The position numbers were made by a program, and so were the translations under genes. 64,000 nucleotides of DNA from a virus. Its lineage: Duplodnaviria > Caudoviricetes. Below, piece after piece: positions 1,145 to 21,113 of this stretch. The DNA is taken from the IMG/VR virus record IMGVR_UViG_2541047088_000005, positions 1,126-65,125 of that record; one strand, written 5' to 3'. The notes below the pieces were generated by a model that had not been told where the DNA came from, did no database searches, and saw only the letters and a program-made list of their open reading frames with translations. Position 1 is the stretch's first letter, and every line of letters starts with the position of its first letter.

Positions 1145-1214
1145 CGACTCACTTCTTTCTGTCCTAAAATATAAAAGGACTACCCATTTCTGAGTAATCA
1201 TTTCAGGTATTATG

Positions 1215-1331
1215 TTAACCAATTATTTTGGATTTTTCCTCTGCCGTTATCCACCCCTTTGATACCGCAATATCAAGCTGTTTTTCTGTGAGTTCATTTA
1301 CCTTATGTAAGTAATTCAACCTTTCAAACAT
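1215..1331 (-). CDS. xkdX: XkdX-family small protein (38 aa, not in ORF track)
   Basis: MFERLNYLHKVNELTEKQLDIAVSKGWITAEEKSKIIG, GGAGG RBS; GWITxEE motif; follows tail fibre and XkdW-like gene. Confidence 0.75.
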   Translation of the reverse strand: MFERLNYLHKVNELTEKQLDIAVSKGWITAEEKSKIIG

Positions 1332-1334
1332 ACT

Positions 1335-1628
1335 TTATACCTCCTGTAAATTTGATGTGATTAGAGTGTCAATTTGTGCCTGCATATTAAGATTGTCCAA
1401 GATTAATGTATCAACCATTTTCTGTAGCTTTTCAATTTCTGTTTTCTCTACAATAAGTTTTTGACCGTCCCTATAAAAATACCCGTCCTTGTAAGAATCT
1501 CCTATAGCAACGGGAATGGTTCCACAAATGATAAGACCATTTGAATAAGCAAATGATTGATCAGCTATAATAATATTTTCTACAGTTGTTCCGTCCTGTG
1601 CTAGTATCGCACATCTTAGATTTTCCAT
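1335..1628 (-). CDS. XkdW-like tail-fibre-associated protein
   Basis: Between fibre and xkdX; close paralogue at 19385..19672. Confidence 0.55.
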   Translation of the reverse strand: MENLRCAILAQDGTTVENIIIADQSFAYSNGLIICGTIPVAIGDSYKDGYFYRDGQKLIVEKTEIEKLQKMVDTLILDNLNMQAQIDTLITSNLQEV

Positions 1629-1639
1629 GATACCCTCCT

Positions 1640-3391
1640 CTAATAACCCCATCGTATAATTACTATTCCACTACCACCAGTTCCTCTAGTACTACTTCCG
1701 TAGCCACCGCCACCACCTCCTCCACCGTAGCCACCACCACCATTACCTCCACCACATCCCATGACTCCTACACTACCAGTTTGACCAGCACTTCCAGACC
1801 CAGCTGTAAAAGATGATGTCCCGGGGTCTCCAGACGTTCCTACACCAGTTGATGTATTTCCCCCTGCTCCCCCAGCACCACCTCCGGCATGTATCCTACC
1901 CCAAAAATCAGTAGTTGGTGTGCCCTGTCCCGTACCGTTGGAGCCAGCACCAGAAGAACCTTTAATATAATATGCGGGAGTACCATTGCCACCATTAGAA
2001 CCTGCTACACCACCCGCAGACCATGTACTAGATGATAAAATCATACCTCCTCCTCCAGCAGAACCACCATTGGCTCCATTACTGGAAGTTGCACCCCCAC
2101 CTCCAGAAGCTGAAGTCAACCAGGTATAAGTACTTGAGCCACCTGTGGAGCCTGCTGTGCCCCCTGCACCTACAGTAATGGTTACAGGAGTTGAGGGTTT
2201 TACCTTATAGAAAGTCTTTGTATAACCTCCTGCCCCTCCACCGCCACCTACATATGAATTCCCTGAACTACTACCTCCGCCACCTCCACCTACCAGGAAT
2301 ACGTCAACAGTTTGGGGAAGTCTATCACTGAAAGAAAGCGTACCTGAGGAATAACATTCTATATAACCTTTTGTAGCTGTTTCTGCAACGATTTTACATG
2401 AACCTGTATAGTTAACTTGCAAAGGTTTACCACCGCTACCACTACGAATAAAAAAATTGCTACCTACCCTCACAAAACTGTAAGGCTTATTAGCTTTCAT
2501 TGCTCCTTCTGTTAATGCAACACCGTCTGCATCTAAAAGCGGTGTTGCACCTAACCCACTAACATTTAACTTTGGTGATGCACTGCAATCAACATTCGGT
2601 ATTATAGTTATTGGTAGGCCATCTTCATATGCGGTTAACGGAGGAGTAAGAGTTACTTTATATTCGGTTGATGTACTATCACTATCTACTTTCCCACTAT
2701 ACGGTTGTCTCACATAATCGGATAAATGAGTGTCAAGGTTGGATGTATTATCATTAATCAAATTTAAAAGATTACCGGCAGTATTTTCGTCAAGGATATC
2801 CTTTAAGTTCTCTACCCATGTTATAAAATCCTCATTTTTTTCTTTCTTAAAACTATCTAGTGCAGCCTGATATTGATTGAAAATTTCTGAAGTATTTACC
2901 TGTTCTACTGTTCCATGAACTATTCCACATAAATCACTGTTCAATCTTTGATCTGTAATGTTTGCTTGTAATATTGCGGTGTCTCCATTATTAATTAAGA
3001 TGTCAGCTATAGCAAGTTCATATATATCTGCATTCCTTGTCAATGTTCGGGCTGTTGGTGTACTTGCCGGAGTCCCTTTCAAAACTGATAAAGCAATTTG
3101 CCTATTCAGATGATCCAGCCTCAATACAATCCTGTCAATTCTCTTTAATACACCGTCAGCCACATCTATTGACATATTGAATGTACCGGTATTTTCATAG
3201 TAATATCCATTTATCCATGCTTTCCCAGCAGCGACTGAAATGTTCATTCCACCTGAAGCTGTCACGGCTAAATTGTTACCCGGATTTGGATACACTCCGT
3301 TACCGATAAAGCTCCCGAAATAGGCAGCATAATCGGAGGCATTGTATTTTCTGTCCCCGTTTATACTGTTAAAAAAACTGCTTTTCTGCAC
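1640..3391 (-). CDS. Tail fibre / receptor-binding protein with glycine-rich C-terminal domain
   Basis: Siphovirus-type N-terminus (FFNSINGDRKY, RIDRIVLRLD); DVFLVGGGGGG Gly-rich tip. Confidence 0.8.
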   Translation of the reverse strand: MQKSSFFNSINGDRKYNASDYAAYFGSFIGNGVYPNPGNNLAVTASGGMNISVAAGKAWINGYYYENTGTFNMSIDVADGVLKRIDRIVLRLDHLNRQIALSVLKGTPASTPTARTLTRNADIYELAIADILINNGDTAILQANITDQRLNSDLCGIVHGTVEQVNTSEIFNQYQAALDSFKKEKNEDFITWVENLKDILDENTAGNLLNLINDNTSNLDTHLSDYVRQPYSGKVDSDSTSTEYKVTLTPPLTAYEDGLPITIIPNVDCSASPKLNVSGLGATPLLDADGVALTEGAMKANKPYSFVRVGSNFFIRSGSGGKPLQVNYTGSCKIVAETATKGYIECYSSGTLSFSDRLPQTVDVFLVGGGGGGSSSGNSYVGGGGGAGGYTKTFYKVKPSTPVTITVGAGGTAGSTGGSSTYTWLTSASGGGGATSSNGANGGSAGGGGMILSSSTWSAGGVAGSNGGNGTPAYYIKGSSGAGSNGTGQGTPTTDFWGRIHAGGGAGGAGGNTSTGVGTSGDPGTSSFTAGSGSAGQTGSVGVMGCGGGNGGGGYGGGGGGGGYGSSTRGTGGSGIVIIRWGY

Positions 3392-3394
3392 TGT

Positions 3395-4429
3395 TTATTC
3401 CCCCTTCAATATATCCTTCAATTCCGGAAGTGGACTCCCGAAAGTAGGTGTTAGTGTTATGATACCGTTTTCATATACCTCTTCGATTTCGGTTATACGA
3501 ACATCAATGACTTTGTTCCAAGCTCGATTTCTACAGGTGACAATATCTCCAAGGTCAAAATCCTTTTTATATACCAAACTAGATTGAAAATTTACATTGC
3601 TTTCAAAAGTTTCATTTTTGACTGACTGAGCCAAAGCTTCATTTCCACGTTGGATTAACAATGCCTTGTAGACATTCTCCGTTAAATCACCTTTTTGTAT
3701 GTCCTTGGCATCAACGAATAATTCCCGTCTTTCAAGGCCTGTTGTATCTCCCACCGTAACAATTATTCTGGCTGTTCCTTCTCCCTCTCCGCCAACTATA
3801 GCCACTGTCTTATAATTTTCAGTTTCAAGAGAATATTTACTATCGGTTACATTTTCAAACTCTTCGGAGAAAATGGCCCTTGGATATACTTTCTGTGCTG
3901 CACTTCTGTTAATCCCCTGATAACATTCAAACAAAAGCTTTTTATCTTTTCTGTCGAATCTAACCCTGTATCCGATATTGCTTACCTGAGCGATTTTAGT
4001 TAATGTGGTGCATACATTTTTGTAAGTTATCTGCAAATCAACTGTTTCTGTATAGTTTTTTAGCTCTCCCAGTTCCAGAAACGGTATTGAATTCATATTA
4101 CTTACAAGTGTCCGCATGGCAAGTTCAGCTGTGGTATTCAACACGGTTTCCTTCATTACGATTCGCCGTTCAGTGAGGGACGATAAAAAACGTCCTTTAA
4201 CTGCAAGGTCATCTTTATCTATACTGATTCCCTCAATTATTCCGGCTTCATTTGCATCCCGCCGGGCAATTATATTGTCCTCTTCAAGTAGCTTCATATT
4301 TTCAGCAGTGTACTTTAAATGAAGTCCAAATTCTCCGGGCTGAAAATACCTTCTCCGCCACCTCAAACTGTCAAACACATCAATAAGTCCAATTAAATCA
4401 AGGCTTCTGTTATATATGTAAAGTTCCAT
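3395..4429 (-). CDS. Siphovirus Gp37-like minor tail/hub protein
   Basis: MELYIYNRS...WRRRYFQPGEF...DFDLGDIVT; follows Dit. Confidence 0.7.
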   Translation of the reverse strand: MELYIYNRSLDLIGLIDVFDSLRWRRRYFQPGEFGLHLKYTAENMKLLEEDNIIARRDANEAGIIEGISIDKDDLAVKGRFLSSLTERRIVMKETVLNTTAELAMRTLVSNMNSIPFLELGELKNYTETVDLQITYKNVCTTLTKIAQVSNIGYRVRFDRKDKKLLFECYQGINRSAAQKVYPRAIFSEEFENVTDSKYSLETENYKTVAIVGGEGEGTARIIVTVGDTTGLERRELFVDAKDIQKGDLTENVYKALLIQRGNEALAQSVKNETFESNVNFQSSLVYKKDFDLGDIVTCRNRAWNKVIDVRITEIEEVYENGIITLTPTFGSPLPELKDILKGE

Positions 4430-4430
4430 A

Positions 4431-5285
4431 TCACACCCCCAAATAGGCCGGAGTATAGTAAATTGATACTTCCAAGTTGTTGAGGTTTTGGTCTGCGTTG
4501 TACCTGATAAGATTATCTCCCGGCCCAAATTGCAGAAATACGCTGTCAGAATCAAGAGCATTAATCACGTTTGTTATAATTCCTGATCTGTTTAATTCTG
4601 CTCTTTTCTTTCCATATAGGGTACTTACTGTTATAATATCTCCGGCCTCCATTTCAATATTAATTTTAAGCTCCTGCTGCTTGTAAACATCAAAAATACT
4701 CGGATTTAACACACTTCCCAAAGCTTTAAATTCGACTACCATTCCAAGTGGTATGTCTCCGTAATTGATTACATTGACCACAAGACTCAATTGTCTTTGG
4801 CCCATTTCAATTCCATTAGGTATTATTTCAAGTGGAAATTCAAATGCTGGCAACCAGGAAGCAATATTATTACGGATACTGTTGATATCCTCCCAAAATG
4901 GGCTTGGACATAGTAAACTTAGTGATGCGGTCTTTAGAATTTTATTATCATTAATTTCAAGACTTTCAACTCTGCATGAAATTTTTCTCTTTATGTTATC
5001 CTGTTCAAATATCAGAGTACCTTCCGACTTAGGGATAAAAACACTGTATAGAAGATTCCTATTGGCTGAATAGTTGTTCTCAATCTGAAAATCAATAACA
5101 ATATTCCTCATTGCTAATGTGCTGCCTATATAGCTTTCACCGTCCTGACCCGAGCCTTTGGATGTATTGATTTTTGTCTTAGGGGTACTTGTACCTCCAT
5201 CAAAGTTGACTAAATAAAAAGGATCGAAGTACCCTATTTTAATACTTCGACCCTTATTATTTATATATGTTAATATCTTTGGCAT
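4431..5285 (-). CDS. Distal tail protein (Dit)
   Basis: Follows tape measure; GQDGESYIGSTL and GDNLIRY motifs. Confidence 0.7.
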   Translation of the reverse strand: MPKILTYINNKGRSIKIGYFDPFYLVNFDGGTSTPKTKINTSKGSGQDGESYIGSTLAMRNIVIDFQIENNYSANRNLLYSVFIPKSEGTLIFEQDNIKRKISCRVESLEINDNKILKTASLSLLCPSPFWEDINSIRNNIASWLPAFEFPLEIIPNGIEMGQRQLSLVVNVINYGDIPLGMVVEFKALGSVLNPSIFDVYKQQELKINIEMEAGDIITVSTLYGKKRAELNRSGIITNVINALDSDSVFLQFGPGDNLIRYNADQNLNNLEVSIYYTPAYLGV

Positions 5286-5286
5286 T

Positions 5287-7395
5287 TTACACCCCCAGAA
5301 CCAAACGCCTTGAAGCATTTCTGGTCTGCCTTGCAACTTCTGCTGGTGTTAAAGGTGTAGGACTGTAAATGTTAACAGTCTGGTTGTAATCTCCCGGATG
5401 ACCAGAGCCACTGGATGAACTGTTGTTGCCCGGTATATAATCCTTTTTGTTAACAGGTATCGCCTTTGCCATGTTTGACGATACACTTCCCATTTCTGCT
5501 TCAAAGCCCATGCCGATTCCCTGGGCCATGTATTTACCTACCTCGTCAGCTAACACACGAGAAGGGGAATGTATATCAAGAACCGACTTAATACTGTTTA
5601 CTATTCCATTTGCAAATCCGGTAATTTTATCTTTTAGCCATCCTACTGCACCCGTCATGCCATTCCATATCCCTTCAACAATGTTTTTGCCTATATTAGC
5701 CATTTTGTTTGGCAGCTCCAACATGAACCCAACAAATTTTGCTATAAACGAAGGCAGGTTATTATTAGCCCAATTGATAAGTTCTGATTTGAGATTATTG
5801 AATTTATCCTTAATCCCGATTATTGCATTCCACACCTTGCCCGGCAGTCCCTTAAAAAATTTAACGACATCATTGACAAAACCATCCACAAAGTTCTTAA
5901 AACCGTCACAGTTGTCATACAGCAATTTGAATGCTCCGGCAAAAGGATTGACTATCATTAATAGCAGTGCTTGCCAATTACCTTTTATAAAGTCAATTAC
6001 GGTATTAAAAACACCTTTCACTTTTTCAACGGCTGTAAAAACGGCACTTTTTATCTTTTCCCATATTCCGATTATGGCATCTCTAAAATCTTCATTTGTG
6101 TTCCACAACACTATTATTGCAGCAACTAATCCAGCCACCAATGTTGCTATTAAAGCTATTGGATTTGCTGTCATTGCAAGATTGAATAGTTTTTGAGCTA
6201 ATGTAGCACCTTCTAGCGCTTTTGTAAACCCAATAATCCCCTGCACCATAGTAACTATATTCCAAGCAGCCAAACCAACTCCAATTGCCGTGATAGTCGC
6301 TAAAACAATAGCTTGATTATCTACTATCCATCTGACAACATTTTCAATTAATTTAGACAAGTTTTCTATAGCAGGAACTAACTTTTCAGCGATTTGACCT
6401 CCAATTACTCCGAAACTGCTCATAGCAGTTGCCTTCAATTTGTCTACCCCATCAGCAAAGGCATTAGCACCATCTAAAGCTTCTTGGGATAAAATCAAAC
6501 CTGCGGCTTCCGCTTCTTCTCCATATTTCTTTAAATCTTCGGCACCGCCAAGTATCAATGGATTTAAATCTTGAGCAGACTTACCAAATATTTGCATAGC
6601 AAGTGCATCTCTTTGGGTTTCATTCTCCATTTTACCAAGAGCATCTATTACTTCATTAAACACATCTTGATTATCTCTTAATTTCCCTTCATTGTCTGTT
6701 ATGGTTATTCCTAAAGCCTTGAATGCTTCTTCTTGGTTTTTGCTACCTTGTCGTGCGCTTTCCATATTTCTTGTGAGTTTTGCCATAGAGCCTGTTAAAG
6801 TTTCCATGGATACATCTATTCTATCACTAGCATACTGGAATTTCTGTATCTGTTCAGTTGATAATCCCGTCTGTTTTGCCAGTGTATTGATATCATCAGC
6901 TGCAGCTCCTGCTTGTACAGCCATACCTATTAACCCAGTACCTATTCCAGCTGCCGCAACTGTTGCGCCCTTCATAAAGTTATTCATTTTCTCAGATTTT
7001 TCTCCAAGAAAATCAATTTCTTTATTGGTCTTTTTAGCCTGGTCTTCTATCTTCTTTAGTTCGATTTCGGTTTTTGCAACTTCTCTTTGAAAGGCTCTGT
7101 ATTGCTCTTCGGATATTTTTCCTTGCTTAACTTGCTCTTGAACCTGTTTTTCAGCTTCTTTGAGGGTATTCAGTTTACTTTTTGTATTGTCAACCGAATC
7201 TGCAAGAAGTTTCTGCTTCTGTGCTAGAAGTTCAGTATTGGTGGGGTCAAGCTTTAAAAGCCTTTCAACCTGTCTTAACTCGTTCTGTAAACCCCTACTT
7301 GTCTTATCTACATCACCAAGTGCTTTATTTAATGGCCCTGTATTACCGCCAATTTCAACTGTTATTCCTTTTATTGTTCCTCCTGCCAATGTCAT
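5287..7395 (-). CDS. Tape measure protein (outer phage)
   Basis: IKGITVEIGG N-terminus, coiled-coil, amphipathic Trp/Phe repeats. Confidence 0.9.
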   Translation of the reverse strand: MTLAGGTIKGITVEIGGNTGPLNKALGDVDKTSRGLQNELRQVERLLKLDPTNTELLAQKQKLLADSVDNTKSKLNTLKEAEKQVQEQVKQGKISEEQYRAFQREVAKTEIELKKIEDQAKKTNKEIDFLGEKSEKMNNFMKGATVAAAGIGTGLIGMAVQAGAAADDINTLAKQTGLSTEQIQKFQYASDRIDVSMETLTGSMAKLTRNMESARQGSKNQEEAFKALGITITDNEGKLRDNQDVFNEVIDALGKMENETQRDALAMQIFGKSAQDLNPLILGGAEDLKKYGEEAEAAGLILSQEALDGANAFADGVDKLKATAMSSFGVIGGQIAEKLVPAIENLSKLIENVVRWIVDNQAIVLATITAIGVGLAAWNIVTMVQGIIGFTKALEGATLAQKLFNLAMTANPIALIATLVAGLVAAIIVLWNTNEDFRDAIIGIWEKIKSAVFTAVEKVKGVFNTVIDFIKGNWQALLLMIVNPFAGAFKLLYDNCDGFKNFVDGFVNDVVKFFKGLPGKVWNAIIGIKDKFNNLKSELINWANNNLPSFIAKFVGFMLELPNKMANIGKNIVEGIWNGMTGAVGWLKDKITGFANGIVNSIKSVLDIHSPSRVLADEVGKYMAQGIGMGFEAEMGSVSSNMAKAIPVNKKDYIPGNNSSSSGSGHPGDYNQTVNIYSPTPLTPAEVARQTRNASRRLVLGV

Positions 7396-7670
7396 TCCTC
7401 CTTTCCGAAGTTCTTCCTCAACTTAGCTCTATCTGGTTTGGTCTGCTCAAGGATCCAGCTCCTTTCTAAATACTTTTGCCCCTCTTCTGATTGCATGTAT
7501 TTATATATAACTGCATCTCGAAGTATAGCTTGATACTCAAAAACATTAAGTTCATATATTTGAGCAAAATTAAAGCCAGTATATTCAGATACCAGCTTTT
7601 CTTCAATATAATTTAGTTTATAATGCCCCTCGTCTGTATCATCAGGACAGCGAGGGATTTTTAGTTTGGG
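7392..7670 (-). CDS. -1 frame extension of tail assembly chaperone (lambda gpGT-like)
   Basis: Open frame PKLKIPRCPDD...KNFGKEE* with no early start codon, entered at slippery CCCAAAC (7664-7670). Confidence 0.75.
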   Translation of the reverse strand, partial: PKLKIPRCPDDTDEGHYKLNYIEEKLVSEYTGFNFAQIYELNVFEYQAILRDAVIYKYMQSEEGQKYLERSWILEQTKPDRAKLRKNFGKEE

Positions 7671-7957
7671 CTGTTCTTGGTTTCGCTAATCCATTTGAAG
7701 TACTCTGTAAGAATAAGACTTACTTGATCCATGTCAAGATCATCAATGACACTGTCTGGAACTGTATACCCTGATTTATTTTTATTCAAAATCATTTCCA
7801 AAGATTTAAATAAACCATCAACTACCTCCGGCCCTTTACTTTGGGTTAATTCGATAACTTTATTTAGAACTTTCTTTGTTGGAGGCTCTACATCAAGTAC
7901 AATACCTCCAATTTTTATTGTAAAATATCTCTTATTTGCAGAATTAATATCAAACAT
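7661..7957 (-). CDS. Tail assembly chaperone (gpG-like)
   Basis: Between major tail and tape measure genes; ends at slippery site. Confidence 0.75.
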   Translation of the reverse strand: MFDINSANKRYFTIKIGGIVLDVEPPTKKVLNKVIELTQSKGPEVVDGLFKSLEMILNKNKSGYTVPDSVIDDLDMDQVSLILTEYFKWISETKNSPN

Positions 7958-8005
7958 ATTTTTATCACCTCTTTATAATTCAAGGGGCCATAAGGCCCCT
8001 GTCAA

Positions 8006-8551
8006 TTAACCTGCTAACGGAATTTTCTCTTCATATTTTATAAGTGTTCCTTCGTTATCCTGTGGCTGTGCCTTAAATTCTGCATCAATGACTGTTTCCT
8101 TATCCTTCTTGAAAGCCAAGGAAAATCCCGCCTGATTTTGACCAACTATAGTAACCCTGATATCACCATCCACCGGGTCTTCATGTACAAAATGTAAGAC
8201 ATATTTTTTGCCGTTGTCATTTCCTACTCCACCGATTTTTACGGTTCTTACTCCGGCGGCCTCGGTTACTCGTGCTGTACTACAGAGTTTTCCAAGTGTT
8301 TTTCCGTTCCATGTCATTATTCCGGATTTTAGAGTAGCTTCTTCTTCAGTAATTATTACTTTCGTGACTTTCCCCATATCGTCCTTAGCTTCATAAAATT
8401 TGGGCTTATACTCTAAGCTTGCACCACCCTGTATTAATCCAAGCAAATTTTCCTCTGTTTCAATTACATTGTTTTCAGGCACCGTTCCCGTGAACTCGGT
8501 ACAATACAAATACCCACTGCCTAAAACTATTTTTTCTCCCTCTGTGGCCAT
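8006..8551 (-). CDS. Major tail protein
   Basis: Position; IVLGSG, LGLIQGGASLEY motifs. Confidence 0.75.
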   Translation of the reverse strand: MATEGEKIVLGSGYLYCTEFTGTVPENNVIETEENLLGLIQGGASLEYKPKFYEAKDDMGKVTKVIITEEEATLKSGIMTWNGKTLGKLCSTARVTEAAGVRTVKIGGVGNDNGKKYVLHFVHEDPVDGDIRVTIVGQNQAGFSLAFKKDKETVIDAEFKAQPQDNEGTLIKYEEKIPLAG

Positions 8552-8552
8552 T

Positions 8553-8879
8553 TTATCTGCTCCTTTCGGTTAACGTAATTTGATAAACAACCTGATATAA
8601 AGCCTCTGATTGTATGTATTCTTCAAAGGTTTTGTATTCTGGGTCTATTGTGTTCAATATTTCTTCGATTTTGTGCTCTGCTTCCAAGTCTTTTTTAACA
8701 GTGTAAAGTTCGATCTGATAATTTTTAAACTTTCCATGCACTTTGTAGTCTGATGAAATATTCTCATCAGTAGTCCTAATGTAAACGATGTACGGCGGAT
8801 CCGGCGATGTTGTAAAATGATGGTATGCCACGGGATATCCAGTTGATTTTAACTGATTGCACAGCTCAATTTGTGTCAT
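8553..8879 (-). CDS. Tail terminator protein
   Basis: Position; LKSTGYPVAYHHF...PPYIVY. Confidence 0.65.
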   Translation of the reverse strand: MTQIELCNQLKSTGYPVAYHHFTTSPDPPYIVYIRTTDENISSDYKVHGKFKNYQIELYTVKKDLEAEHKIEEILNTIDPEYKTFEEYIQSEALYQVVYQITLTERSR

Positions 8880-9247
8880 TTTTGCACCGCCCTTTCAATC
8901 CGTTCAACAAGTTCTTTCTTCGCCTTTTCTTCATTTGTAGAAATATGCGGCCTACCTTCTACCCTTCCGCCGCCTGTCTTAGCGTGTCCGAATTCCAGTA
9001 GGTGTGTCAGCTGATAGTCCGTGGCATTGTAAGTAGTCAGCCGGATATTGTCTCTATCTTCGTATTCCACCTTTGACCGCCAACCTTTAGCATATTTCCC
9101 CGTACCGTCAAACAGGGTTTTACTATCCTGTCTAATAGCTTCGGTCATTTCCTTGCTTACATCCTTGCAGGTCTTTTTTACCTCCTGAGTTACCTCTGTA
9201 GAATACTCAGACAATACTGCTGCCAATTGTGCTTCCAGGTCACTCAT
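8876..9247 (-). CDS. HK97 gp10-like neck protein
   Basis: TGKYAKGW...THLLEFGH...GRPHI. Confidence 0.75.
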   Translation of the reverse strand: MSDLEAQLAAVLSEYSTEVTQEVKKTCKDVSKEMTEAIRQDSKTLFDGTGKYAKGWRSKVEYEDRDNIRLTTYNATDYQLTHLLEFGHAKTGGGRVEGRPHISTNEEKAKKELVERIERAVQK

Positions 9248-9847: not shown

Positions 9848-9850
9848 GTC

Positions 9851-12877: not shown

Positions 12878-12881
12878 CCTT

Positions 12882-14690
12882 CTAAAACCATCCGCTTAGC
12901 TTACCTTTTTCCAATGCTTCCAATTTCCTTACACATGCAAAAACAGAGGCATCGAATATATCAATCCTCTGTGAATCCTCAACCTTTTCATACTGTACCA
13001 TGTCATCCGTTTTCTCAATTGCCCTTACATTCTGAACACAGTATTCATATGCCTGGGAGCTGAGATAATATAAATTTCCGTCTTTTGCCTTCTGCTCTAT
13101 CCGTCTGAACCCCTCGGACTTTTTATAGAAATATTGAGGCTGGTCAATAATATTGAAGTTTGCTTTCTTCATTCCAATAAAATATTCTCTACAGAATTTT
13201 CTATCATGCCCAACCTGCTTTATTTTAAAACCCATGTTTCTCATTTTTTTAAACCAGTTGACAATCTCGGCATGATTAACTGTTGCCGAATTACTCATGT
13301 CAAGCCAGCCGTCATCCTTCCAGCCAAATAGCGGAATGCTGTCTTCATCTGCCTTTTGAGCTGCCGCAACTATTGGAAACCATGCATGAGAGATTATAAT
13401 ATCTATTTCCTCGGGTACTTCTATTACTTCTCCCTTTTCATTTGTGATTTTAATCATCCGCCCGGTCATATAACTTCCATATAAAGCAGCCGCCGTCAAG
13501 TCATGGAGCTTTGACAAGTCTGCACCGCCATACCATTCAATGGGCAAGTTTTTCAGAAACTCAATCTTTTTATCCAGTTTCCACTCCGGCTTGATGTTGA
13601 GCTTTGCTTCGCAAGCTGTGTCAGACTTCCTGAATTCATCAATGTTGAAATATGCTCTTAATGCGGCAGTAAATACATTTAAAGATTTGGCAAAAAAGTC
13701 TTTTCTCAACTGAGGATCGTTCATGGCTTGCAAGGAATCATTTAAAATATCGTCGGGCCGTATTGAGACTCCATATGCCGGGTTTGCCATCTCATGAATA
13801 ACCGGGTTTGTATAGTCAACATCCCCGTTTTCTTTTTCATCTGCCTTGCAAATAAAGACAAAGTACTGTTCATCGGTTACTGTCTTATCAAGAATCTTTT
13901 TACAATACTGAAGCTTTTGATAACAGAAGCTTGTCATACTGTCTCCGGCAGTAGTAATACCTATCATCAATTTATTTGTGTATGCCTTCATTGCTTCCTT
14001 TATAATGTTGTACTGCTTCGGTGTCTTGTATGCATGTATTTCATCAGCTATACCGATGTTACAGTTAAGAGAATCCTGACTGTCAGGGTTCGCCGCCAGT
14101 GCCTGAATAAATAAAGAACCGTCATCCAAATCCCCGCTAATGCTATGCTCCTGATTATTGTCAATAACCCGGAAGTTTTCCTTCTCTCCCATCTGTTCCA
14201 AATTAAAATTAATGAAGTTGAAGCTTTCAAGGGATTGTTTCAAAGCAGCAGCAACAATATATACCTTGCTGCCACTTCGCCTTTCCAAAATACCAAGGGC
14301 CCATGCAAGAGCAGCGGCAAAACTTGTCTTGATATTTTTTCTGGGAATAAAAATAAACGCCTCTTTGAAGCGCCTTCTTTTAGTCCCTTTGTGGTAAAAC
14401 CCTAAAATGTTATATACAATAAATTTATGAAACGGTTCCAATAAAAAAGGCGTACCCCGGAGTGGAGTGCCGTCCAACTTTTCCCCCTGCATATGTACGA
14501 AAGTGTTCTCAATCAACTCAATAACGAATTCTGCATCATCAGTTTTAAAGTCGTATAGTGGATTCTCTAAGTCCTTTAAAAACCTTTGACAGCATTGGAT
14601 CTGTTCTTTACAAGCAATTTTTCTATGGCCTGTGATACTTCTGGCATACTCCATTATAATATCAAAATTGTTAACTTTAGAATCAGCCAT
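12882..14690 (-). CDS. Terminase large subunit (outer phage)
   Basis: IFIPRKNIKT Walker A, IADEIH Walker B, ITTAG, GADLSKLHDL. Confidence 0.92.
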   Translation of the reverse strand: MADSKVNNFDIIMEYARSITGHRKIACKEQIQCCQRFLKDLENPLYDFKTDDAEFVIELIENTFVHMQGEKLDGTPLRGTPFLLEPFHKFIVYNILGFYHKGTKRRRFKEAFIFIPRKNIKTSFAAALAWALGILERRSGSKVYIVAAALKQSLESFNFINFNLEQMGEKENFRVIDNNQEHSISGDLDDGSLFIQALAANPDSQDSLNCNIGIADEIHAYKTPKQYNIIKEAMKAYTNKLMIGITTAGDSMTSFCYQKLQYCKKILDKTVTDEQYFVFICKADEKENGDVDYTNPVIHEMANPAYGVSIRPDDILNDSLQAMNDPQLRKDFFAKSLNVFTAALRAYFNIDEFRKSDTACEAKLNIKPEWKLDKKIEFLKNLPIEWYGGADLSKLHDLTAAALYGSYMTGRMIKITNEKGEVIEVPEEIDIIISHAWFPIVAAAQKADEDSIPLFGWKDDGWLDMSNSATVNHAEIVNWFKKMRNMGFKIKQVGHDRKFCREYFIGMKKANFNIIDQPQYFYKKSEGFRRIEQKAKDGNLYYLSSQAYEYCVQNVRAIEKTDDMVQYEKVEDSQRIDIFDASVFACVRKLEALEKGKLSGWF

Positions 14691-15063
14691 TCTTACTCAT
14701 CACCTGTGTGAGCTTGCTTGTTTTTTTCTTAGCTTTCATTTCGTCGTTTATTTTTTTCAAGCCTAATGGAGTCAATCCCAAAATGCTCCTGTAGTTAACA
14801 AGGTCACTCCGTAAATTTTCAATAGCCAAGTACGTTGCTGTTTTTCTTATGTTCGTGAATCCTGAATTATTGGTGTACTCCTCCATCATCTTGCCGCCGC
14901 TGATAATGAAATCCTTGTATGCCCGATTGTAAATCTGCTGAGTCTCAGCATAAATTTTAACAGTGGCATCAAATTGCGGTTTGTAGGTATTGACTTCCTG
15001 CATTTCTTTAATTGTGTTTTTAATGATTTTGTTAACTTCTTTTTGTTCCGGTGACATTGACAT
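14683..15063 (-). CDS. Terminase small subunit, P27 family
   Basis: LGLTP motif near C-terminus; directly upstream of TerL. Confidence 0.8.
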   Translation of the reverse strand: MSMSPEQKEVNKIIKNTIKEMQEVNTYKPQFDATVKIYAETQQIYNRAYKDFIISGGKMMEEYTNNSGFTNIRKTATYLAIENLRSDLVNYRSILGLTPLGLKKINDEMKAKKKTSKLTQVMSKNG

Positions 15064-15134
15064 TTTTTAATAACCCCCTTTTTTTAAAAATTCCGGTCTA
15101 TTGGAAAAGCCTCCCTATCCCCGGTGTCCCAAAA

Positions 15135-15425
15135 TTAATTATTTTTGTCCTTGGGTGGGGGGGTTCTTTTCCTCAATGCTTCTCCCTGTGGTGTCAATTT
15201 CTTGGTAAGTCTGTGATGCATTTTGTTGTGTACCCTATTTGCAAGGGATATAAGGTTCCAATCCTCCCATGCATACTCTGGATATTCATCAGCAGGCCAT
15301 ATGTGATGAACCATATCAGCATCGATTCTTTTTCCATACCGTTTGCTTTCCTGACACATGTAACCGTCACGCTTTAAAATGTGTTCCCGTTTCCGTTCCC
15401 ACCGCTTGGAATTATAATCAATCAT
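15135..15425 (-). CDS. HNH endonuclease (cos-phage packaging type)
   Basis: RDGYMCQ...VHHIWP...NLISL...HNKMH upstream of terS. Confidence 0.85.
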   Translation of the reverse strand: MIDYNSKRWERKREHILKRDGYMCQESKRYGKRIDADMVHHIWPADEYPEYAWEDWNLISLANRVHNKMHHRLTKKLTPQGEALRKRTPPPKDKNN

Positions 15426-15598
15426 ATTAACACCTCAACTAATTAAAATTTACATACATTATAGAAGGAAAAATTTTTTCACTTTAACATATCTACTATT
15501 CTGTTAAACTGGCATTTCCCTTGTAAAGCCTTGAATTAATGCATCTTAGGATAACATTGCAAATGAGTTTAACACATTCTCGTTATGTTAATGTCAAA

Positions 15599-16148
15599 TC
15601 AAAATAAACGAAATTTCTTCATGCTCTTATTGATGTCTTCCTGCTCTATTCCAATGTACCTTAAAGTGATTTTTTGGCTTGAATGATTGAATATTGTCAT
15701 TAACAATGCTGCATCTTTGAATTGTTTATAGTGTTGATAACCAAATGTTTTTCTTAACGTGTGAGTACCGAGGTCAGGTATGTCAAATAAATTGCCAACC
15801 TCTTTCATTATCTGATATGCTCTTACCCGGCTTAAGGGAGTATTCTTACCCTGTCTACTTGGTATTAAATATTCGTTAGGGTTCTTCCCTTCACAATATT
15901 TTTTTAATTCTTTTTTTAGTCTCAGGATTTATTTCAAACTTTTTCTCTTTCTTAGTTTTCTTTTCACGAATCCTGATTACGTCTTTATTTTTAACATCAC
16001 ATATCCGTAGTTTAAGAATGTCTGAAATTCTAAGTCCTGAATAAGCACCAGTGTAGAACATAATAAAATCCCTTTTATTATTCATCTTTAGGTACGAACA
16101 AATTTGTTTGATTTTCTCAGGATCCCTTATAGGGTCAACAGTGTTCAT
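15599..16148 (-). pseudogene. Small tyrosine recombinase, frameshifted near 15911-15918
   Basis: GLRISD in 5' ORF; HTLRKTF, NHSS, TLRY in 3' ORF; removing one base near the A7 run restores KKELKKYCEGKNPNEYL. Confidence 0.8.
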
Positions 16149-16182
16149 CTTAAACCACCTTCTTTGCATAAATACTTTTAGG

Positions 16183-16223
16183 AAAACAAAAATACCGCCC
16201 CGGCCTTCACCCCGAAACGGTAC
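16183..16223 (-). terminator. Intrinsic terminator-like hairpin
   Basis: GTACCG...CGGTAT stem with G-U pairs followed by T-run on minus strand. Confidence 0.5.
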
Positions 16224-16255
16224 TTTTCAGATTACATAATAACATCATTTAATGT

Positions 16256-16282
16256 GACATTGCATCGACATGTTTTGGACAT
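16256..16282 (-). promoter_or_regulatory. Candidate late-promoter activator site (3 x ATGTC, 11-bp period)
   Basis: GACAT at 16256, 16267, 16278 upstream of the recombinase-HNH-terminase operon. Confidence 0.5.
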
Positions 16283-16363
16283 TAATAATCGTTTCAATAT
16301 TTTTATAATAAAGAATCTTATAACTCAATTTATTCAGCCACAAATTTTCTAACCATAGTTAAT

Positions 16364-17286
16364 TTAATACATACATAATGCTTTATACATTCGAGCTTCT
16401 GATTTTTCACTAATTTCGTGATAATTTTCGCTGACATCCCCATATCTATCATTTTCAAAGCAATAATGGCGAAACTCATCAAAAAAGTGTTCTATATCCA
16501 TAGTAATCCCTTCTATAAAGCACCCATACTCTACTAATTCATTTAAAGCACATTTATCAGCAGGATCCAATAAATATCTTTCATTAAAAGGGTGTTTTTT
16601 TCCTATTTATTTTTGAGAAATAACTCATAAATATAATTTATATTATTTTGATTTGTTTTGACTAAATTACATTTATTATTCTCGTAACTATTTTTTAGCA
16701 TTATAGAATGGAAATTGGTAAGCTGATAACATTGCATCAAATCATCTTCTAAAAATTCTTGAGGGTTAATAATATCCTTATTTTTCATAAAAAACTCATT
16801 TAACGGCATAGAGTATGAACTATATTCCCTTAAAAATTTCAATGTTTCAAAATGTTCGCGAGCATTGAAGGAAATTATCGGTTTTTTCCCTATAGCAAAA
16901 TTGGAAGAAAAACAGTTTATAACTTTAGAATGATTAATATTAATAAGCTTTTCTACAGTTTCTTTATCATCTAAGTATAATGTAGACAGCATTGCATGAA
17001 ATAAAGAATAGTAACTTAAAAAATAATATGCAGAATAAATACCATTTTGAAATGCAAATTGTGCTTCTGTAAAAAAAGTAGATGACGTTGCTATTTCCTT
17101 TAATGATTTTCTTGTCCTAATAGTCCACTCTATCAATTTATTTTCATCACAAGATTTGAATATTTTACTATATCTACTCATCCAATTATTATAGTATTTT
17201 GTCTGCTCTTTTTCGTCAGGTATATTCTTATTTAATAATTCAAAATTTGCAACTAACCCATCTGGAATATGTATTTCAAAAGCCAT
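16364..17286 (-). pseudogene. HEPN-like protein moron, probably split by a 1-nt deletion near 16605
   Basis: YYSLFHAM, NHSKVINCF, LREYSSY motifs; one extra A at aat-aaa-tag joins both ORFs (NKIGKKHPFNERYLLDPADK). Confidence 0.55.
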
Positions 17287-17368
17287 AATTACCTCCGCTA
17301 ATACAATTATATGCATTATATTAACATATATTTCAAATAATTAAATAATTTTACTTCAATTTCACAGA

Positions 17369-17407
17369 AAAAATATCGCTCAATTTTCAACAGAGAGCGA
17401 TATTTTT
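17369..17407. terminator. Bidirectional terminator-like hairpin after late regulator
   Basis: AAAAATATCGCTC / GAGCGATATTTTT. Confidence 0.65.
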
Positions 17408-17441
17408 ATCAAAGATATTATACTAAAATTTTATATTTCAC

Positions 17442-18068
17442 TTATGCATCCAGCTTCAACCCATCCACACCGAATATCAAAACCGATAATTCTTCAATAG
17501 CTTCTTTTCTGTCCCTTTCAATAGTCTTTGTACTGCAATACAGCTCTTCGGCCATCTGACTGTATGTCTTTTTGTCAATATACAGACCCACAAGCACCCT
17601 GTATTTTCTCTCCTTCTCCGGCTCCGATTTTGTTATGTACTTGTAGTACCCGAGGATCCTTTTAATGTGGTTAACAATAAGAAAGGTTCTTTCTCTTGTC
17701 CTCATAATTGAACGGACATAAACTTCGTCCTCATCGTCCTCCACCTCATCCAGAATGTCAATTGCATTAGCCTGCTTCAGCTGTTTGCTGGTGTACAGTG
17801 CCGTGTTGCAGTGTGCCACAAATTTGTTGTAGTTCTTTAGCAGTAAATCAGTATTCCTTAGCCTCCTATCAAACCGTGATTTCCTTTTTTCCTCCTTCTC
17901 CTTGCTGATCCTGTCCAGAGCTTCCCTGACTCCGGCTTGTACCCCAATCTGAATAATCTTGTCAATTGAAAATTCCACTCCATCTCCCGCCTTTCTCTCT
18001 TTGAACTTGTTTTCTACTGCATCTGTGTTATAATAAAAGTGAACATTTGTTTGGGCGAGAGAGCCCAT
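17442..18068 (-). CDS. Late transcriptional regulator (ArpU/RinA-like, sigma70 region-4 HTH); likely start GTG 17978
   Basis: C-terminal YIDKKTYSQMAEELYCSTKTIERDRKEAI; position upstream of packaging genes. Confidence 0.75.
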   Translation of the reverse strand: MGSLAQTNVHFYYNTDAVENKFKERKAGDGVEFSIDKIIQIGVQAGVREALDRISKEKEEKRKSRFDRRLRNTDLLLKNYNKFVAHCNTALYTSKQLKQANAIDILDEVEDDEDEVYVRSIMRTRERTFLIVNHIKRILGYYKYITKSEPEKERKYRVLVGLYIDKKTYSQMAEELYCSTKTIERDRKEAIEELSVLIFGVDGLKLDA

Positions 18069-18079
18069 TTTTTTTGCAC

Positions 18080-18114
18080 AAAAAACCGCACTTCTTAAAA
18101 AATGAATGTGCGGT
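18080..18114 (-). terminator. Intrinsic terminator of DUF2691 moron
   Basis: ACCGCAC...GTGCGGT followed by TTTTT on minus strand. Confidence 0.65.
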
Positions 18115-18162
18115 CGTGACTATTTTACTCTTATAAATTATATAAAATACCAAAACTTCTTC

Positions 18163-18651
18163 CTACTCAATTCTAAATCTATTGGCCAGTAACTCCGTTT
18201 CACTAATATACTTAACATTCTCGTATCCCATTTTCAGAGTGTAATTGTACATTTTCCCCAACAATTGTTTGTCTTTGCACCAAAGGATAACCCCCGAGCA
18301 ATCGTATACACATAGTGCCATTTGGCAATCACTTTGTAGGAACTCTTGATAATTTGTAATATCTTCAACAGCTCCCTCTTCATTGAAAGCCTTAAGCGTA
18401 GCAAATACCATGTAATAAGTATTGTCTTTTGCCCTATTATATAAAATATCTCCGGATATAATTCGTTCTTCAGCCTTAAATAAGAATTCGTTTGTAAATT
18501 CACCATCTTCAAGCAAGTGTATCTCATCCCGGCTAAGTAACCACATGAAATTCTGGGCTTCCAAAGGCTCTAGTAGGTCAGATAAGTAATGCCCATAACC
18601 GTTAGTTATTTCAAAACATATCCCCATGTTTCTCAATAAGGTATCCTCCAA
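18163..18651 (-). CDS. DUF2691-like protein (moron)
   Basis: MGICFEITNGYGHYLSDLL...FATLKAF...YQEFLQSDCQ...CKD pattern. Confidence 0.6.
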   Translation of the reverse strand: MEDTLLRNMGICFEITNGYGHYLSDLLEPLEAQNFMWLLSRDEIHLLEDGEFTNEFLFKAEERIISGDILYNRAKDNTYYMVFATLKAFNEEGAVEDITNYQEFLQSDCQMALCVYDCSGVILWCKDKQLLGKMYNYTLKMGYENVKYISETELLANRFRIE

Positions 18652-18738
18652 ATATAATTTTAACTTTTTTCATTTGTCCGACTCATATATAATAATACAT
18701 TTTAATAATTCCAATATATACTATATGTTAGACTTACT

Positions 18739-18743
18739 CAAGT
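18739..18743 (+). repeat. 5-bp target site duplication CAAGT (left copy)
   Basis: ctCAAGT|TGTAGCC; the same 5-mer follows the right end. Confidence 0.85.
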
Positions 18744-18751
18744 TGTAGCCG

Positions 18752-18795
18752 CTCAAAATTTTTGGCACAAATTCTCAAAATATTTGGCAAAAATT
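18752..18795 (+). repeat. Two tandem 22-bp repeats, candidate transposase binding sites (Mu R1/R2-like)
   Basis: CTCAAAATTTTTGGCACAAATT and CTCAAAATATTTGGCAAAAATT start 8 bp inside the TG end. Confidence 0.7.
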
Positions 18796-18809
18796 TTATT
18801 GTTTCTTTG

Positions 18810-18856
18810 AAATAATTCCTAGAGAATATTTTTATTATATACTCTAGGAATTATTT
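18810..18856. repeat. Perfect 15-bp inverted repeat
   Basis: AAATAATTCCTAGAG-17 nt-CTCTAGGAATTATTT. Confidence 0.8.
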
Positions 18857-18878
18857 AATCTAGGTCGTTTTTTTATCC

Positions 18879-19238
18879 TTATCCAACTACTAGAATAATC
18901 TCGCCATTTGATAATTTACTTTTTGTTACTGTACCTCCACCGCCTCCAGATATGCTTATACGATTATCTATATTATCAACAAAAGTACAATTTGCGTTAT
19001 AAGAGGTTGACCCTCTACCACCACCACCAGAATTATTAACATCATTTTTTATGATTTTACTCTCATTGCACGTACAGGTCTTACGTTTACGATTATATAT
19101 ACAATAATCAAATAACCCTACACCACCACCCTCGGACAATTTATGCCAATAGGGACATTTAATAATATTACTATATTCTTTTTTATATCTTATTTTCTTT
19201 ATAAAACGTTGAAATTTAATGCATAGTGATTTTAACAT
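18879..19238 (-). CDS. Cys/Gly-rich hypothetical protein, last gene of Mu-like tail operon
   Basis: AAGGAGG RBS before ATG 19238; CPYW, CIY, CTC and two GGGG tracts. Confidence 0.55.
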   Translation of the reverse strand: MLKSLCIKFQRFIKKIRYKKEYSNIIKCPYWHKLSEGGGVGLFDYCIYNRKRKTCTCNESKIIKNDVNNSGGGGRGSTSYNANCTFVDNIDNRISISGGGGGTVTKSKLSNGEIILVVG

Positions 19239-19254
19239 AAGTTCAGTAACCTCC

Positions 19255-19371
19255 TTAACCAATTATTTTGGATTTTTCCTCGGCGGTTATCCATCCCTTT
19301 GATACTGCAATGCCCAGTTGTTCTGCTGTTAGTTTTCCTATATTATATAAATAATGTAATCTTTCAAACAT
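19255..19371 (-). CDS. xkdX: XkdX-family small protein (38 aa, not in ORF track)
   Basis: MFERLHYLYNIGKLTAEQLGIAVSKGWITAEEKSKIIG; paralogue of 1215..1331. Confidence 0.75.
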   Translation of the reverse strand: MFERLHYLYNIGKLTAEQLGIAVSKGWITAEEKSKIIG

Positions 19372-19384
19372 ATCTTTATACCTC

Positions 19385-19672
19385 CTATAAATTTGATGTG
19401 ATTAGAGTGTCAATTTGTGCCTGCATATTAAGATTGTCCAAGATTAAAGTGTCAACCATTTTCTGTAGTTTTTCAATTTCTGTTTTCTCTGCGATAAGTT
19501 TTACTCCGTCTCTATAAAAATAACCATCTTGGTATGTATCACCAATACTGACAGGAACTGTACCACAAATAACCGCACCAATACTGTATGCAAAGGATTG
19601 GTCAGCTATTATTATATTTTCTACTGTCGTTTTATCCTCCGCCAATATTGCACATCTTAAAGCTAAATCCAT
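19385..19672 (-). CDS. XkdW-like tail-fibre-associated protein
   Basis: Close paralogue of 1335..1628. Confidence 0.55.
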   Translation of the reverse strand: MDLALRCAILAEDKTTVENIIIADQSFAYSIGAVICGTVPVSIGDTYQDGYFYRDGVKLIAEKTEIEKLQKMVDTLILDNLNMQAQIDTLITSNL

Positions 19673-19673
19673 A

Positions 19674-21110
19674 TCAATACCCCCAACGTATAATTACTAT
19701 CCCACTACCACCAGTACCGCCATTTCCTCGAGGACTGCCATATCCTCCGCCACCACCGCCTCCGCCATAACCGCCGCCGCCCGGCCCACCACTAGACATT
19801 ACCAAACCTACAGTTCCAAGACCGCCCTCTGAACCTGAACCAGTTATAAACGCTGAAGCTCCCGGAGCATTACCAGAACCTCCACCAGAATAATTACTTC
19901 CAGAAGTATTTCCGCCGCCTCCGCCAGCACCGCCTCCGGCATGTATACGACCAAAGAAATCCGTTGTAGGTGTTCCTTGTCCTGAACCGTTTACACCTGC
20001 TCCTGAATTACCCCCGGAAGAATAGATAGGATTAATGCCGTTACCTCCATTTGAACCCGCTACCCCGTTGTATGACCAAGTGGTACTTGACAAAATATTC
20101 CCTCCTCCTCCGGCAGAACCGCCATTTGCTCCATTACTAGAAGTTGCACCATTACCACCCGAAGCTGAAGTCAATCCAGTATAAGTACTTGACCCACCAG
20201 ATGAACCAGAAGCACCTCCTGCACCTACGTAAATGGCTATAGGCGTTGAGGGTTTTACCTTAAAGAAAGTTTTGGTGTAACCACCACCACCGCCGCCACC
20301 GCCTGTGTAGGTGCTACCTGAACTGCTACCACCTCCACCGCCACCTACTAGAAATACGTCAACTGTTTGTGGAAGTCTATCAATGAAAGAAAGAGTGCCT
20401 GAAGAATAACATTCTATATAACCTTTTGTAGCTGTTTCTGCAACGATTTTACATGAACCTGTATAATTAACTTCCAGAGGTTTACCACCACTACCACTAC
20501 GAATAAAAAAATTACTACCTACCCTCACAAAACTATAAGGTTTATTAGCTTTCATTACTCCCGTTGTTAATCGTGCACCCTCAGCATCTAAAAGTGGTGT
20601 AGCACCTAAACCGCAAATGTCCAATGTTGGTGATTCACCGCAATCAACATTTGGTATTATTGTTATTGGTAAGCCGTCTTCATATGCTGTTAAGGGGGGA
20701 GTAAGCGTTACTTTATAGTTGGTTGGTGTACTATCACTATCTACTCTACCGCTATAGGGTTGCCTGACATAATCCAACTTATGTGTATCAAGGTCAGTTT
20801 GGTTGGCCTTTGTTCCTATTAGGTTAGTGATAGTAGTTGCAAAGTTTGGGTCAGCTCCCAGAGCATCTGACAGCTCATTTAAAGTGTCGAGAGCAGCCGG
20901 AGCTGATGCAATAAGTTCAGCAATTTTGTCATCTGTATACTGCTTTAAAACTGATTGTGTATTGCTTGCAAGGTTTTGAGCATCCTCAATTCCTTGCTCT
21001 ATATTGTTCATTTTCTCTGCGGTGAACCTAGTCCCTTGCTGTAAAACTTGACCGCTTTCAGGGTCAACAATATGGTCTATCCAAGTAGTTTTTTGGTATA
21101 CTTCAGCCAT
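19674..21110 (-). CDS. Tail fibre (Mu-like phage) with glycine-rich tip
   Basis: Myovirus-type APAALDTLNELSDALGADPNFATT repeat; C-terminal part homologous to the outer phage fibre. Confidence 0.85.
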   Translation of the reverse strand: MAEVYQKTTWIDHIVDPESGQVLQQGTRFTAEKMNNIEQGIEDAQNLASNTQSVLKQYTDDKIAELIASAPAALDTLNELSDALGADPNFATTITNLIGTKANQTDLDTHKLDYVRQPYSGRVDSDSTPTNYKVTLTPPLTAYEDGLPITIIPNVDCGESPTLDICGLGATPLLDAEGARLTTGVMKANKPYSFVRVGSNFFIRSGSGGKPLEVNYTGSCKIVAETATKGYIECYSSGTLSFIDRLPQTVDVFLVGGGGGGSSSGSTYTGGGGGGGGYTKTFFKVKPSTPIAIYVGAGGASGSSGGSSTYTGLTSASGGNGATSSNGANGGSAGGGGNILSSTTWSYNGVAGSNGGNGINPIYSSGGNSGAGVNGSGQGTPTTDFFGRIHAGGGAGGGGGNTSGSNYSGGGSGNAPGASAFITGSGSEGGLGTVGLVMSSGGPGGGGYGGGGGGGGYGSPRGNGGTGGSGIVIIRWGY

Positions 21111-21113
21111 CTG

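Follow-up and report, generated by a model that had tools for sequence, protein, structure and literature searches.

Alleles of a common tail-fibre cassette in a siphovirus prophage and in a Mu-like prophage apparently nested within it

Why should two phages with different tails carry what looks like the same fibre end within one lysogen? The question is raised by a stretch of viral DNA (IMG/VR record IMGVR_UViG_2541047088_000005, positions 1,126 to 65,125; Duplodnaviria, Caudoviricetes), which we analysed over its whole length of 64,000 nucleotides and refer to as the window. The host is a cellulose-degrading Ruminiclostridium (genus taken from the source name of protein P0003). Some 18 kb apart, the window holds two copies of a module made of a fibre shaft, a glycine-rich fibre tip, a small XkdW-like gene (the helper) and xkdX. 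An earlier, sequence-only reading had assigned one copy to a siphovirus (A) and the other to a myovirus (B), had implied a side-by-side layout of the two phages and had suggested that the tip and its small partner genes move as one cassette between tail architectures. We favour, at a probability of roughly 0.78, a reading in which a siphovirus prophage with a serine integrase has been split by a Mu-like prophage, each phage carrying its own allele of a common cassette that is exchanged at conserved joints.

Two copies of one fibre module

The segments 1215-2735 and 19255-20795 are homologous and lie in the same orientation, with every module gene of both copies on the minus strand. A repeat finder returned co-linear families of direct repeats (1215-2318 against 19255-20373, 75-91% identity) at a spacing of 18034-18055 bp. 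In a pairwise DNA alignment with MAFFT, homology sets in sharply at the stop codon of each xkdX copy (1215, 19255) and ends near 2735 and 20795. The limits given by the sequence-only reading hold to the base, as do its two identical blocks of 62 bp (2349-2410 and 20404-20465) and 60 bp (1347-1406 and 19388-19447), which are the longest strings that the copies share. The tips are about 77% identical in nucleotides and 82% in protein, with the divergence greatest in the segments between glycine motifs; the two phages may or may not, with differences so placed, bind the same receptor.

At the protein level the two fibres align with E 2e-138 (BLASTP), and convincing similarity begins at LDTH..DYVRQPYSG. 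From there it runs, as had been claimed, through the tip, the XkdW-like gene and xkdX to the stop codon. No significant BLASTP alignment of the two fibres was found before this junction, and their N-termini match different PHROG families, which bears out the description of the anchors as unrelated. Since the tip is about 34% glycine, one could ask whether two low-complexity proteins resemble each other by composition only. We give this practically no credence. Protein identity of 76-88% extends also over the shaft, which is not glycine-rich, and over both small genes, XkdW-like and xkdX. Other fibres with the Gly_rich_2 domain are only 34-46% identical to tip A, far below the identity of A and B, so the similarity of the two copies is specific and exceeds that between random glycine-rich fibres.

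The copies are old alleles under purifying selection. Synonymous divergence (dS) between A and B is 0.85 for the tip, 0.98 for the XkdW-like gene and 0.77 for xkdX, and the ratio of nonsynonymous to synonymous divergence (dN/dS) is 0.16, 0.09 and 0.17, respectively. A repeat produced recently in this lysogen, by exchange, by gene conversion between resident prophages or by local duplication, would fit the two exact blocks of 60-62 bp and the co-orientation of copies only 18 kb apart, and the sequence-only reading had allowed that the repeats support tip exchange. We consider such a recent origin very unlikely, with dS values of 0.77-0.98 standing against it. The exact blocks are, moreover, equally conserved in all four copies compared (A, B and those of the related genomes G008 and G009), and in nearly every 60-bp window the orthologues of A in G009 and G008 are closer to it than B is. 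The windows hold no trace of exchange between the resident copies, and gene conversion is rejected on these values and this comparison. The maximum-likelihood tree of tips gives the same picture: B pairs with P0006, a fibre of the tail-collar type (90% identity, support 97/100), rather than with A. In the same tree the tip of the G009 siphovirus is sister to that of a PBSX-type fibre (P0004, support 99/97). On our reading, A and B each arrived with an allele of a receptor-binding cassette that many Ruminiclostridium prophages possess.

Layout of the two prophages

By gene content, B appears to be a thoroughly Mu-like transposable phage rather than a PBSX-like element. Twelve Pfam families point this way, including DDE_2 and Mu-transpos_C and a MuB-like ATPase (AAA_22, TniB). 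Further matches among its accessory and head genes are to Gam, GemA, Gp27, portal_Mu, Mu F, protease I and gpT capsid. Its tail genes match Baseplate_J and DUF2586, the latter a protein of 476 aa that is read as the sheath by position only.

The ends of B were set by the loss of homology to relatives, independently of termini and target duplication. Two Mu-like prophages, one in G011 of the same genus and one in G039 from another family, cease to be homologous to the window exactly at 18743/18744, as the former does again at 49401. Between these limits B starts with TG and ends with CA, and the 5 bp CAAGT stand as a perfect direct repeat on either side of it. The termini recur in the G011 prophage, where the duplicated 5 bp are different (ATGGA), the mark of an independent insertion. 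Ruminiclostridium would thus have an apparently intact family of Mu-like transposable phages, for which two genomes give the exact ends and the target duplications.

Phage A has a siphovirus tail (Pfam Sipho_tail with SPP1_Dit, Sipho_Gp37 and PhageMin_Tail), and no sheath gene was found among the open reading frames (ORFs) of 35-15425. Its late half comprises a lysis cassette (35-1222), the fibre module, Sipho_Gp37, Dit, tape measure, head genes, portal, TerL, TerS, HNH, a late regulator (17442-18068) and DUF2691. Beyond B lie a replisome-organiser gene (49711-50388), an AbrB-like gene, the Cro/CI region (52-53.8 kb), a variable defence island (54-62 kb) and, on the plus strand, a serine integrase that runs from 62396 to beyond 64000. 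Contig 3 of the sister genome G009 (same genus) has an A-like prophage at the same chromosomal locus, serine integrase included. There the equivalents of 52283-49692 (96% identity) and 18114-17442 (95%) are only 853 bp apart; here the distance is 31.6 kb. The Mu-type ends, the CAAGT duplication and this synteny together argue that B transposed into A and now sits nested within it, its site being a variable slot for accessory genes with A's replisome-organiser gene on one side and A's late regulator on the other (Table 1).

The neighbouring-phage layout implied at first is therefore replaced by an insertion of B within A. A tandem lysogen, in which two prophages integrated side by side and deletions then removed the lysis genes of B and the early genes of A, is extremely unlikely. 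It would account for the lack of a lysin directly after B's xkdX and for the mere ~3.8 kb between that gene and the packaging genes of A. However, A's early genes are found beyond B and are contiguous with the late genes in G009, TG..CA ends and a 5-bp duplication bound B, and B has its own GH25 lysin. As B's own lysin lies in the middle of its genome, the outer lysis cassette belongs to A. Under the nested layout the 18-kb spacing of the copies follows from the position of B's fibre genes at its right end plus the 17 kb of A's late genes. The deletion between the repeats that had been envisaged could in principle occur, at the cost of B's right end and the entire set of A's late genes. What seem at first to be neighbouring prophages would be one inside the other, which matters for prophage annotation.

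Table 1. Coordinates of the two prophages, the two module copies and selected genes in the window
Feature	Coordinates	Strand	Basis
Prophage A, late half	35..18743	-	Pfam; co-linear at 89-96% with G009 contig 3
Prophage A, early half	49402..64000	- (serine integrase +)	Pfam; synteny with G009 contig 3
Prophage B, apparent Mu-like transposable myovirus, 30,658 bp	18744..49401	-	Ends 5'-TGTAGCC...GAGTACA-3'; Pfam and relatives
Target-site duplication CAAGT at B's right end	18739..18743		Flank comparison
Target-site duplication CAAGT at B's left (repressor) end	49402..49406		Flank comparison
Mu-type DDE transposase of B	44858..46936	-	Pfam DDE_2, Mu-transpos_C
Endolysin of B, GH25, mid-genome	40827..41714	-	Pfam
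Module copy A (shaft, tip, XkdW-like, xkdX)	1215..2735	-	Repeat finder, alignment, exact matches
Module copy B	19255..20795	-	Repeat finder, alignment, exact matches
Tail fibre A, 583 aa	1640..3391	-	PHROG 1220/27282 on N-terminus; Pfam Gly_rich_2 at aa 360-581
Tail fibre B, 478 aa	19674..21110	-	Anchor homology, linker PHROGs, Pfam Gly_rich_2
XkdW-like copy A, 105 aa	1335..1652	-	AlphaFold2 model: small beta N-domain and long C-terminal helix
XkdW-like copy B, 95 aa	19385..19672	-	88% identical to copy A
xkdX copy A, 38 aa	1215..1331	-	Pfam Phage_XkdX, phrog_134; 76% identical to copy B
xkdX copy B, 38 aa	19255..19371	-	Homology to copy A

Several further features of the two prophages were noted. 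At the right end of B (18744-18832) TTTGGCA(C/A)AAA occurs twice, and G039 shares a stretch of 51 bp from this end at 90% conservation; near the left end (48970-49085) the repeat TTTCGCACG occurs twice and has no partner at the other end. Both are candidate transposase-binding repeats. Between B's xkdX and its right end, a Cys- and Gly-rich ORF of 127 aa (18879-19262, minus strand) overlaps the stop codon of that xkdX. Neither Pfam nor PHROG gives a match for it; in an unrelated phage region on contig 2 of G018, sequence 90% conserved with its 3' part likewise follows xkdX. On contig 17 of G011 (L016 8279-10694) the Mu-like prophage abuts an ORF that resembles, by eye only, the C-terminal part of a recombinase; a 554-aa gene follows that is serine-recombinase-like, again by eye, and this prophage too may sit in a mobile element.

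Phage A has mosaic regions of its own. The XhlA-like and small holin-like genes of its lysis cassette (35-1222) are homologous to those of G009 and of a PBSX-like prophage on contig 28 of the same genome (L002 7734-8871); the lysin between them differs, so the lysis module is itself mosaic. A small tyrosine recombinase, reduced to its catalytic domain and split into ORFs of 92 and 69 aa (15599-16169, minus strand), lies between the late regulator and the HNH and TerS genes. Between the immunity region and the serine integrase, an 8-kb low-G+C island (53824-61889, with an AIPR gene and others) is swapped for an unrelated 8.4 kb in the G009 prophage at the same locus, and looks like a variable slot for defence or accessory genes.

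The tip, its helper and the unit of exchange

DNA and protein searches of 38-41 related genomes found the cassette in many prophages, two of them elsewhere in the same genome (contigs 94 and 28). The tip stands behind unrelated N-termini (at least five arrangements, with the junction itself behind at least six): the A-type siphovirus domain, the Mu-lineage anchor, a PBSX-type domain, a tail-collar domain (PF12571) and two more. In all fused forms the junction reads H-x2-DYVRQP(Y/F)SG or a close variant, so the breakpoint is conserved among relatives. Three further arrangements were found: (i) a stand-alone glycine-rich gene of 272-294 aa follows separate fibre proteins in G008, G009, G010, G018 and G022; (ii) two fibres (P0009 and P0010) keep the shaft and continue, after FFIRS.GG, into an unrelated tip that is not glycine-rich; (iii) the fibre of the G011 Mu-like phage has a B-like anchor (about the first 53 residues, 75% identical) followed by an unrelated tip, so that B's N-terminus is indeed found joined to another tip, and the helper and XkdX-like gene of that phage also differ from those of B.

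Other observations concern these relatives. The third prophage, on contig 94, has a stand-alone tip gene (L001, about 9776-10585, minus strand) with a single in-frame stop at about codon 22; apart from this it is 93% identical to the intact 272-aa gene of G010, and it probably encoded an adhesin until a recent inactivation. In the contig 94 prophage (L001 8209-9306) and in that of G010 (L010 2710-3807) the Sipho_Gp37-like gene is found downstream of xkdX, and in A upstream of the fibre genes, a rearrangement of the tail-tip gene order. Two PBSX-type fibres (P0004 and P0005) seem, by eye, to have two tandem shaft-like domains before the glycine-rich tip.

Fibre A consists of a siphovirus-type N-domain (aa 1-221), a shaft (222 to about 320) and a TNF-like plus glycine-rich tip (about 328-583). 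In fibre B a Mu-lineage anchor (aa 1 to about 55) and an APAALDTL-type linker (56-108), matched by many tail-fibre PHROGs, precede the shaft and the glycine-rich tip. Both fibres score above the 24.3-bit cut-off of Pfam Gly_rich_2 (PF21722), A with 51.9 and B with 48.6 bits. An AlphaFold2 monomer model of tip A (predicted local distance difference test, pLDDT, 78) has as its best fold match the Bxb1 tail tip (9d93_Qa; Z 16.2, root-mean-square deviation (rmsd) 3.5 A, 178 residues, 32% identity), and also matches the Pam3 fibre gp24 (7ypx_A; Z 13.8, 187 residues, 27% identity). For this predicted model, both matches cover the two distal domains and stand clear of the next unrelated ones (Z of 5 or less). 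Lower matches are to the glycine-rich domains of ALK and LTK (Z 6-7, 113-128 residues, 16-23% identity) and, for the shaft only, to the Pa193 tail fibre (Z 9.4, 89 residues, 25% identity). The model thus assigns the tip to the TNF-like plus glycine-rich domains of the Pam3 gp24 type. In a tblastn search of 50,697 phage records with the tip as query, and with the glycine-rich part masked by the low-complexity filter, the sole match was the shaft of a fibre of the Geobacillus/Thermus phage phiOH2 (42.6%).

The helper merits the name XkdW-like for its gene position but not by family: copy A matches no Pfam family at E of 1 or less, XkdW (PF09636) included, and no PHROG family. In A it overlaps the 3' end of the fibre gene by 13 bp (1640-1652), and in B it starts 1 bp downstream. 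The AlphaFold2 model of copy A has strands in residues 12-61 and a helix in residues 72-104. XkdX of copy A falls just short of the Pfam Phage_XkdX cut-off (PF09693; 23.4 against 23.5 bits, E 6e-5, over the full 38 aa) and matches phrog_134 (E 1e-6). It also has a weak match (E 0.0098) to SPP1 gp23.1, which has been described as a putative chaperone.

The two halves of the helper have different distributions. Genome searches in which the match covers both N-domain and helix (starting at residues 1-12) fall, in 14 of 14 loci, beside a glycine-rich tip ending in RWGY. Where the match is to the helix only (residues 69-105), the adjoining fibre is not glycine-rich (9 of the 9 resolved loci), and the same XkdX family then follows. 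These counts leave out one divergent locus (L050 of G008, 43.5% identity), whose upstream ORF is not glycine-rich. On contig 2 of G018, DNA homology to B spans xkdX and ends at 19489, which is the domain boundary of the helper. The split of loci and this breakpoint identify the N-domain of the helper as the part that co-varies with the tip. The tip-linked unit would then be the tip plus the XkdW-like N-domain, and the helix plus XkdX a conserved backbone that also accompanies tips that are not glycine-rich; the exact 60-bp block lies within this backbone. Of the proposal that the cassette moves as one between tail architectures, the movement stands, since tip phylogeny cuts across N-terminal type; the joint unit, however, appears to be the tip and the helper N-domain. 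A scan with the alignment of XkdW-like proteins found only four loci in IMG/VR, where the N-domain family therefore looks narrow.

What might hold tip and N-domain together? The Pam3 gp24-gp25 structure, the predicted architecture of beta domain plus helix and a match of the helper model to the gp25 N-domain (7ypx_a; Z 4.5, 54 residues, rmsd 2.8) make the XkdW-like N-domain a candidate tip-specific fibre chaperone. It would bind and chaperone its own tip, the C-terminal helix would trimerise as shown for Pam3 gp25/gp24, and dependence of the tip on a specific chaperone could explain why the two are inherited together. The helper and XkdX might instead be structural parts of the mature fibre, with co-inheritance reflecting permanent structural contact, or proteins of the lysis module. 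We find this unlikely. The literature found does not establish a function for PBSX XkdW or XkdX, the gp25 match is weak, and xkdX directly precedes the XhlA-like lysis gene, all of which leave room for such roles; yet a variable N-domain and a conserved helix encoded right after the fibre resemble the Pam3 gp25 chaperone (PMC9608196), and the gp23.1 match of XkdX, though weak, points in the same direction.

We propose that the cassette comprises the shaft, a TNF-like plus glycine-rich tip, a two-domain XkdW-like helper and XkdX, and that the family would spread among tail types by recombination at conserved joints. The joints would be (i) the shaft start, H-x2-DYVRQP; (ii) the boundary before the tip, FFIRSG.GG/YTGSCKIV; and (iii) xkdX plus the 3' part of the XkdW-like gene, which encodes the helix. 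The glycine-rich domain would act as the adhesin, its variable loops between glycine motifs contacting the receptor. Variation of the tip by G-segment-like inversion or by a diversity-generating retroelement was considered: there is no inverted tip copy among the 25 longest inverted repeats, and no invertase or reverse transcriptase among the annotated genes of B (a subset of its ORFs was scanned).

Some results weigh against parts of this proposal. (i) No empty target site for B was found, the accessory-gene slot being different in G009, so the insertion is read from ends, duplication and synteny; searches for the flanks (DUF2691 and a 75-aa ORF) detected no homologous DNA in 41 genomes (G000 and 40 relatives) nor in a set of five. 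(ii) A repeat finder and an 11-mer script detected no convincing inverted terminal repeats in B, whose ends match over 4 bp only (TGTA). (iii) The structure models are monomers of probably trimeric proteins, and their hypervariable loops have pLDDT below 50. (iv) The match of the helper to gp25 is weak and has no sequence family behind it, so homology is unproven; a Foldseek search of the PDB gave nothing significant (gp25 at E 4.7), and PBSX XkdW was absent among the matches listed. (v) The genomes behind the co-occurrence counts are related, so that the counts lack independence.

A broader idea, to which we give somewhat less than an even chance, is that Ruminiclostridium phages of at least three tail types (siphovirus, Mu-like myovirus, and PBSX-like or tail-collar myovirus) share a standardised plug-in adhesin, namely a tip with its matching chaperone N-domain set between universal joints, and either fused or docked non-covalently in the manner of gp38. 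As a hypothesis drawn from that analogy, the stand-alone tips might dock in this way. If true, gp38-style detachable adhesins would also occur in phages of Gram-positive hosts and a minimal transferable unit of host range would be defined. The locus is a well-resolved natural example of how a host-recognition module is packaged for exchange, with recombination joints pinned to domain boundaries, one of them inside the helper gene.

Comparison with known systems

The gene order recalls xkdV-xkdW-xkdX of PBSX in Bacillus subtilis, with a fibre gene, a small gene, an XkdX-family gene, an XhlA-like gene, a lysin and a holin; the difference is the middle gene, which here has no Pfam XkdW match. Like Mu, B has a DDE transposase, a MuB-like ATPase, Gam, GemA, Mu-type head genes, fibre genes at its right end, TG..CA termini and a 5-bp duplication. 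Unlike Mu, it shows no invertible G-segment or invertase by the fibre genes, among the genes annotated, and it lies inside another prophage. Mu-like prophages of clostridia have been described (Clostridium phage Villandry and LM41 phi13-delta; PMC11318856).

The nearest counterpart of tip and helper is the tail fibre gp24 of cyanophage Pam3 with its chaperone gp25 (PDB 7YPX; PMC9608196). As in Pam3, the helper is predicted to have a beta N-domain and a C-terminal helix and is encoded right after the fibre, and its N-domain tracks tip type, as the Pam3 model predicts; the locus thereby lends comparative support to the model of a tip-specific N-domain and a conserved C-domain. In contrast to gp25 (162 aa), the helper has only 95-105 aa, a fold match at Z 4.5 and no detectable sequence similarity. 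The present system also has an extra shaft domain and a third small gene, xkdX, belongs to Gram-positive clostridia and is known from genes and models.

The gp38 adhesin of the T2/S16 type likewise has a polyglycine-rich tip (PMC12032242; PDB 6F45 as cited in PMC9608196). The tips described here are likewise built of conserved glycine-rich motifs with variable segments between them, and in several Ruminiclostridium prophages the tip is a separate gene after the fibre genes, as gp38 caps gp37. However, gp38 is described as monomeric, in A and B the tip is fused to the fibre, and 6F45 is not among the fold matches listed for the tip model. The best of these, the glycine-rich tail-tip protein of mycobacteriophage Bxb1 (PDB 9D93, chain Q), comes from a siphovirus of a Gram-positive host; the two differ in N-terminal attachment.

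The kind of event is well known. Fibre mosaics of P2, Mu, P1, lambda and T4 were reportedly described by Haggard-Ljungquist et al. in 1992. Closely related receptor-binding domains occur on myo-, sipho- and podoviruses (BASEL), with frequent horizontal transfer of fibre parts (PMC11990801). What we describe is ordinary module swapping and leaves current concepts unchanged. It shares with these systems the same distal module on unrelated anchors, conserved junctions and a putative chaperone gene that travels with the tip. It differs in host genus and tip family, and in that the breakpoint within the helper gene can be mapped to a domain boundary.

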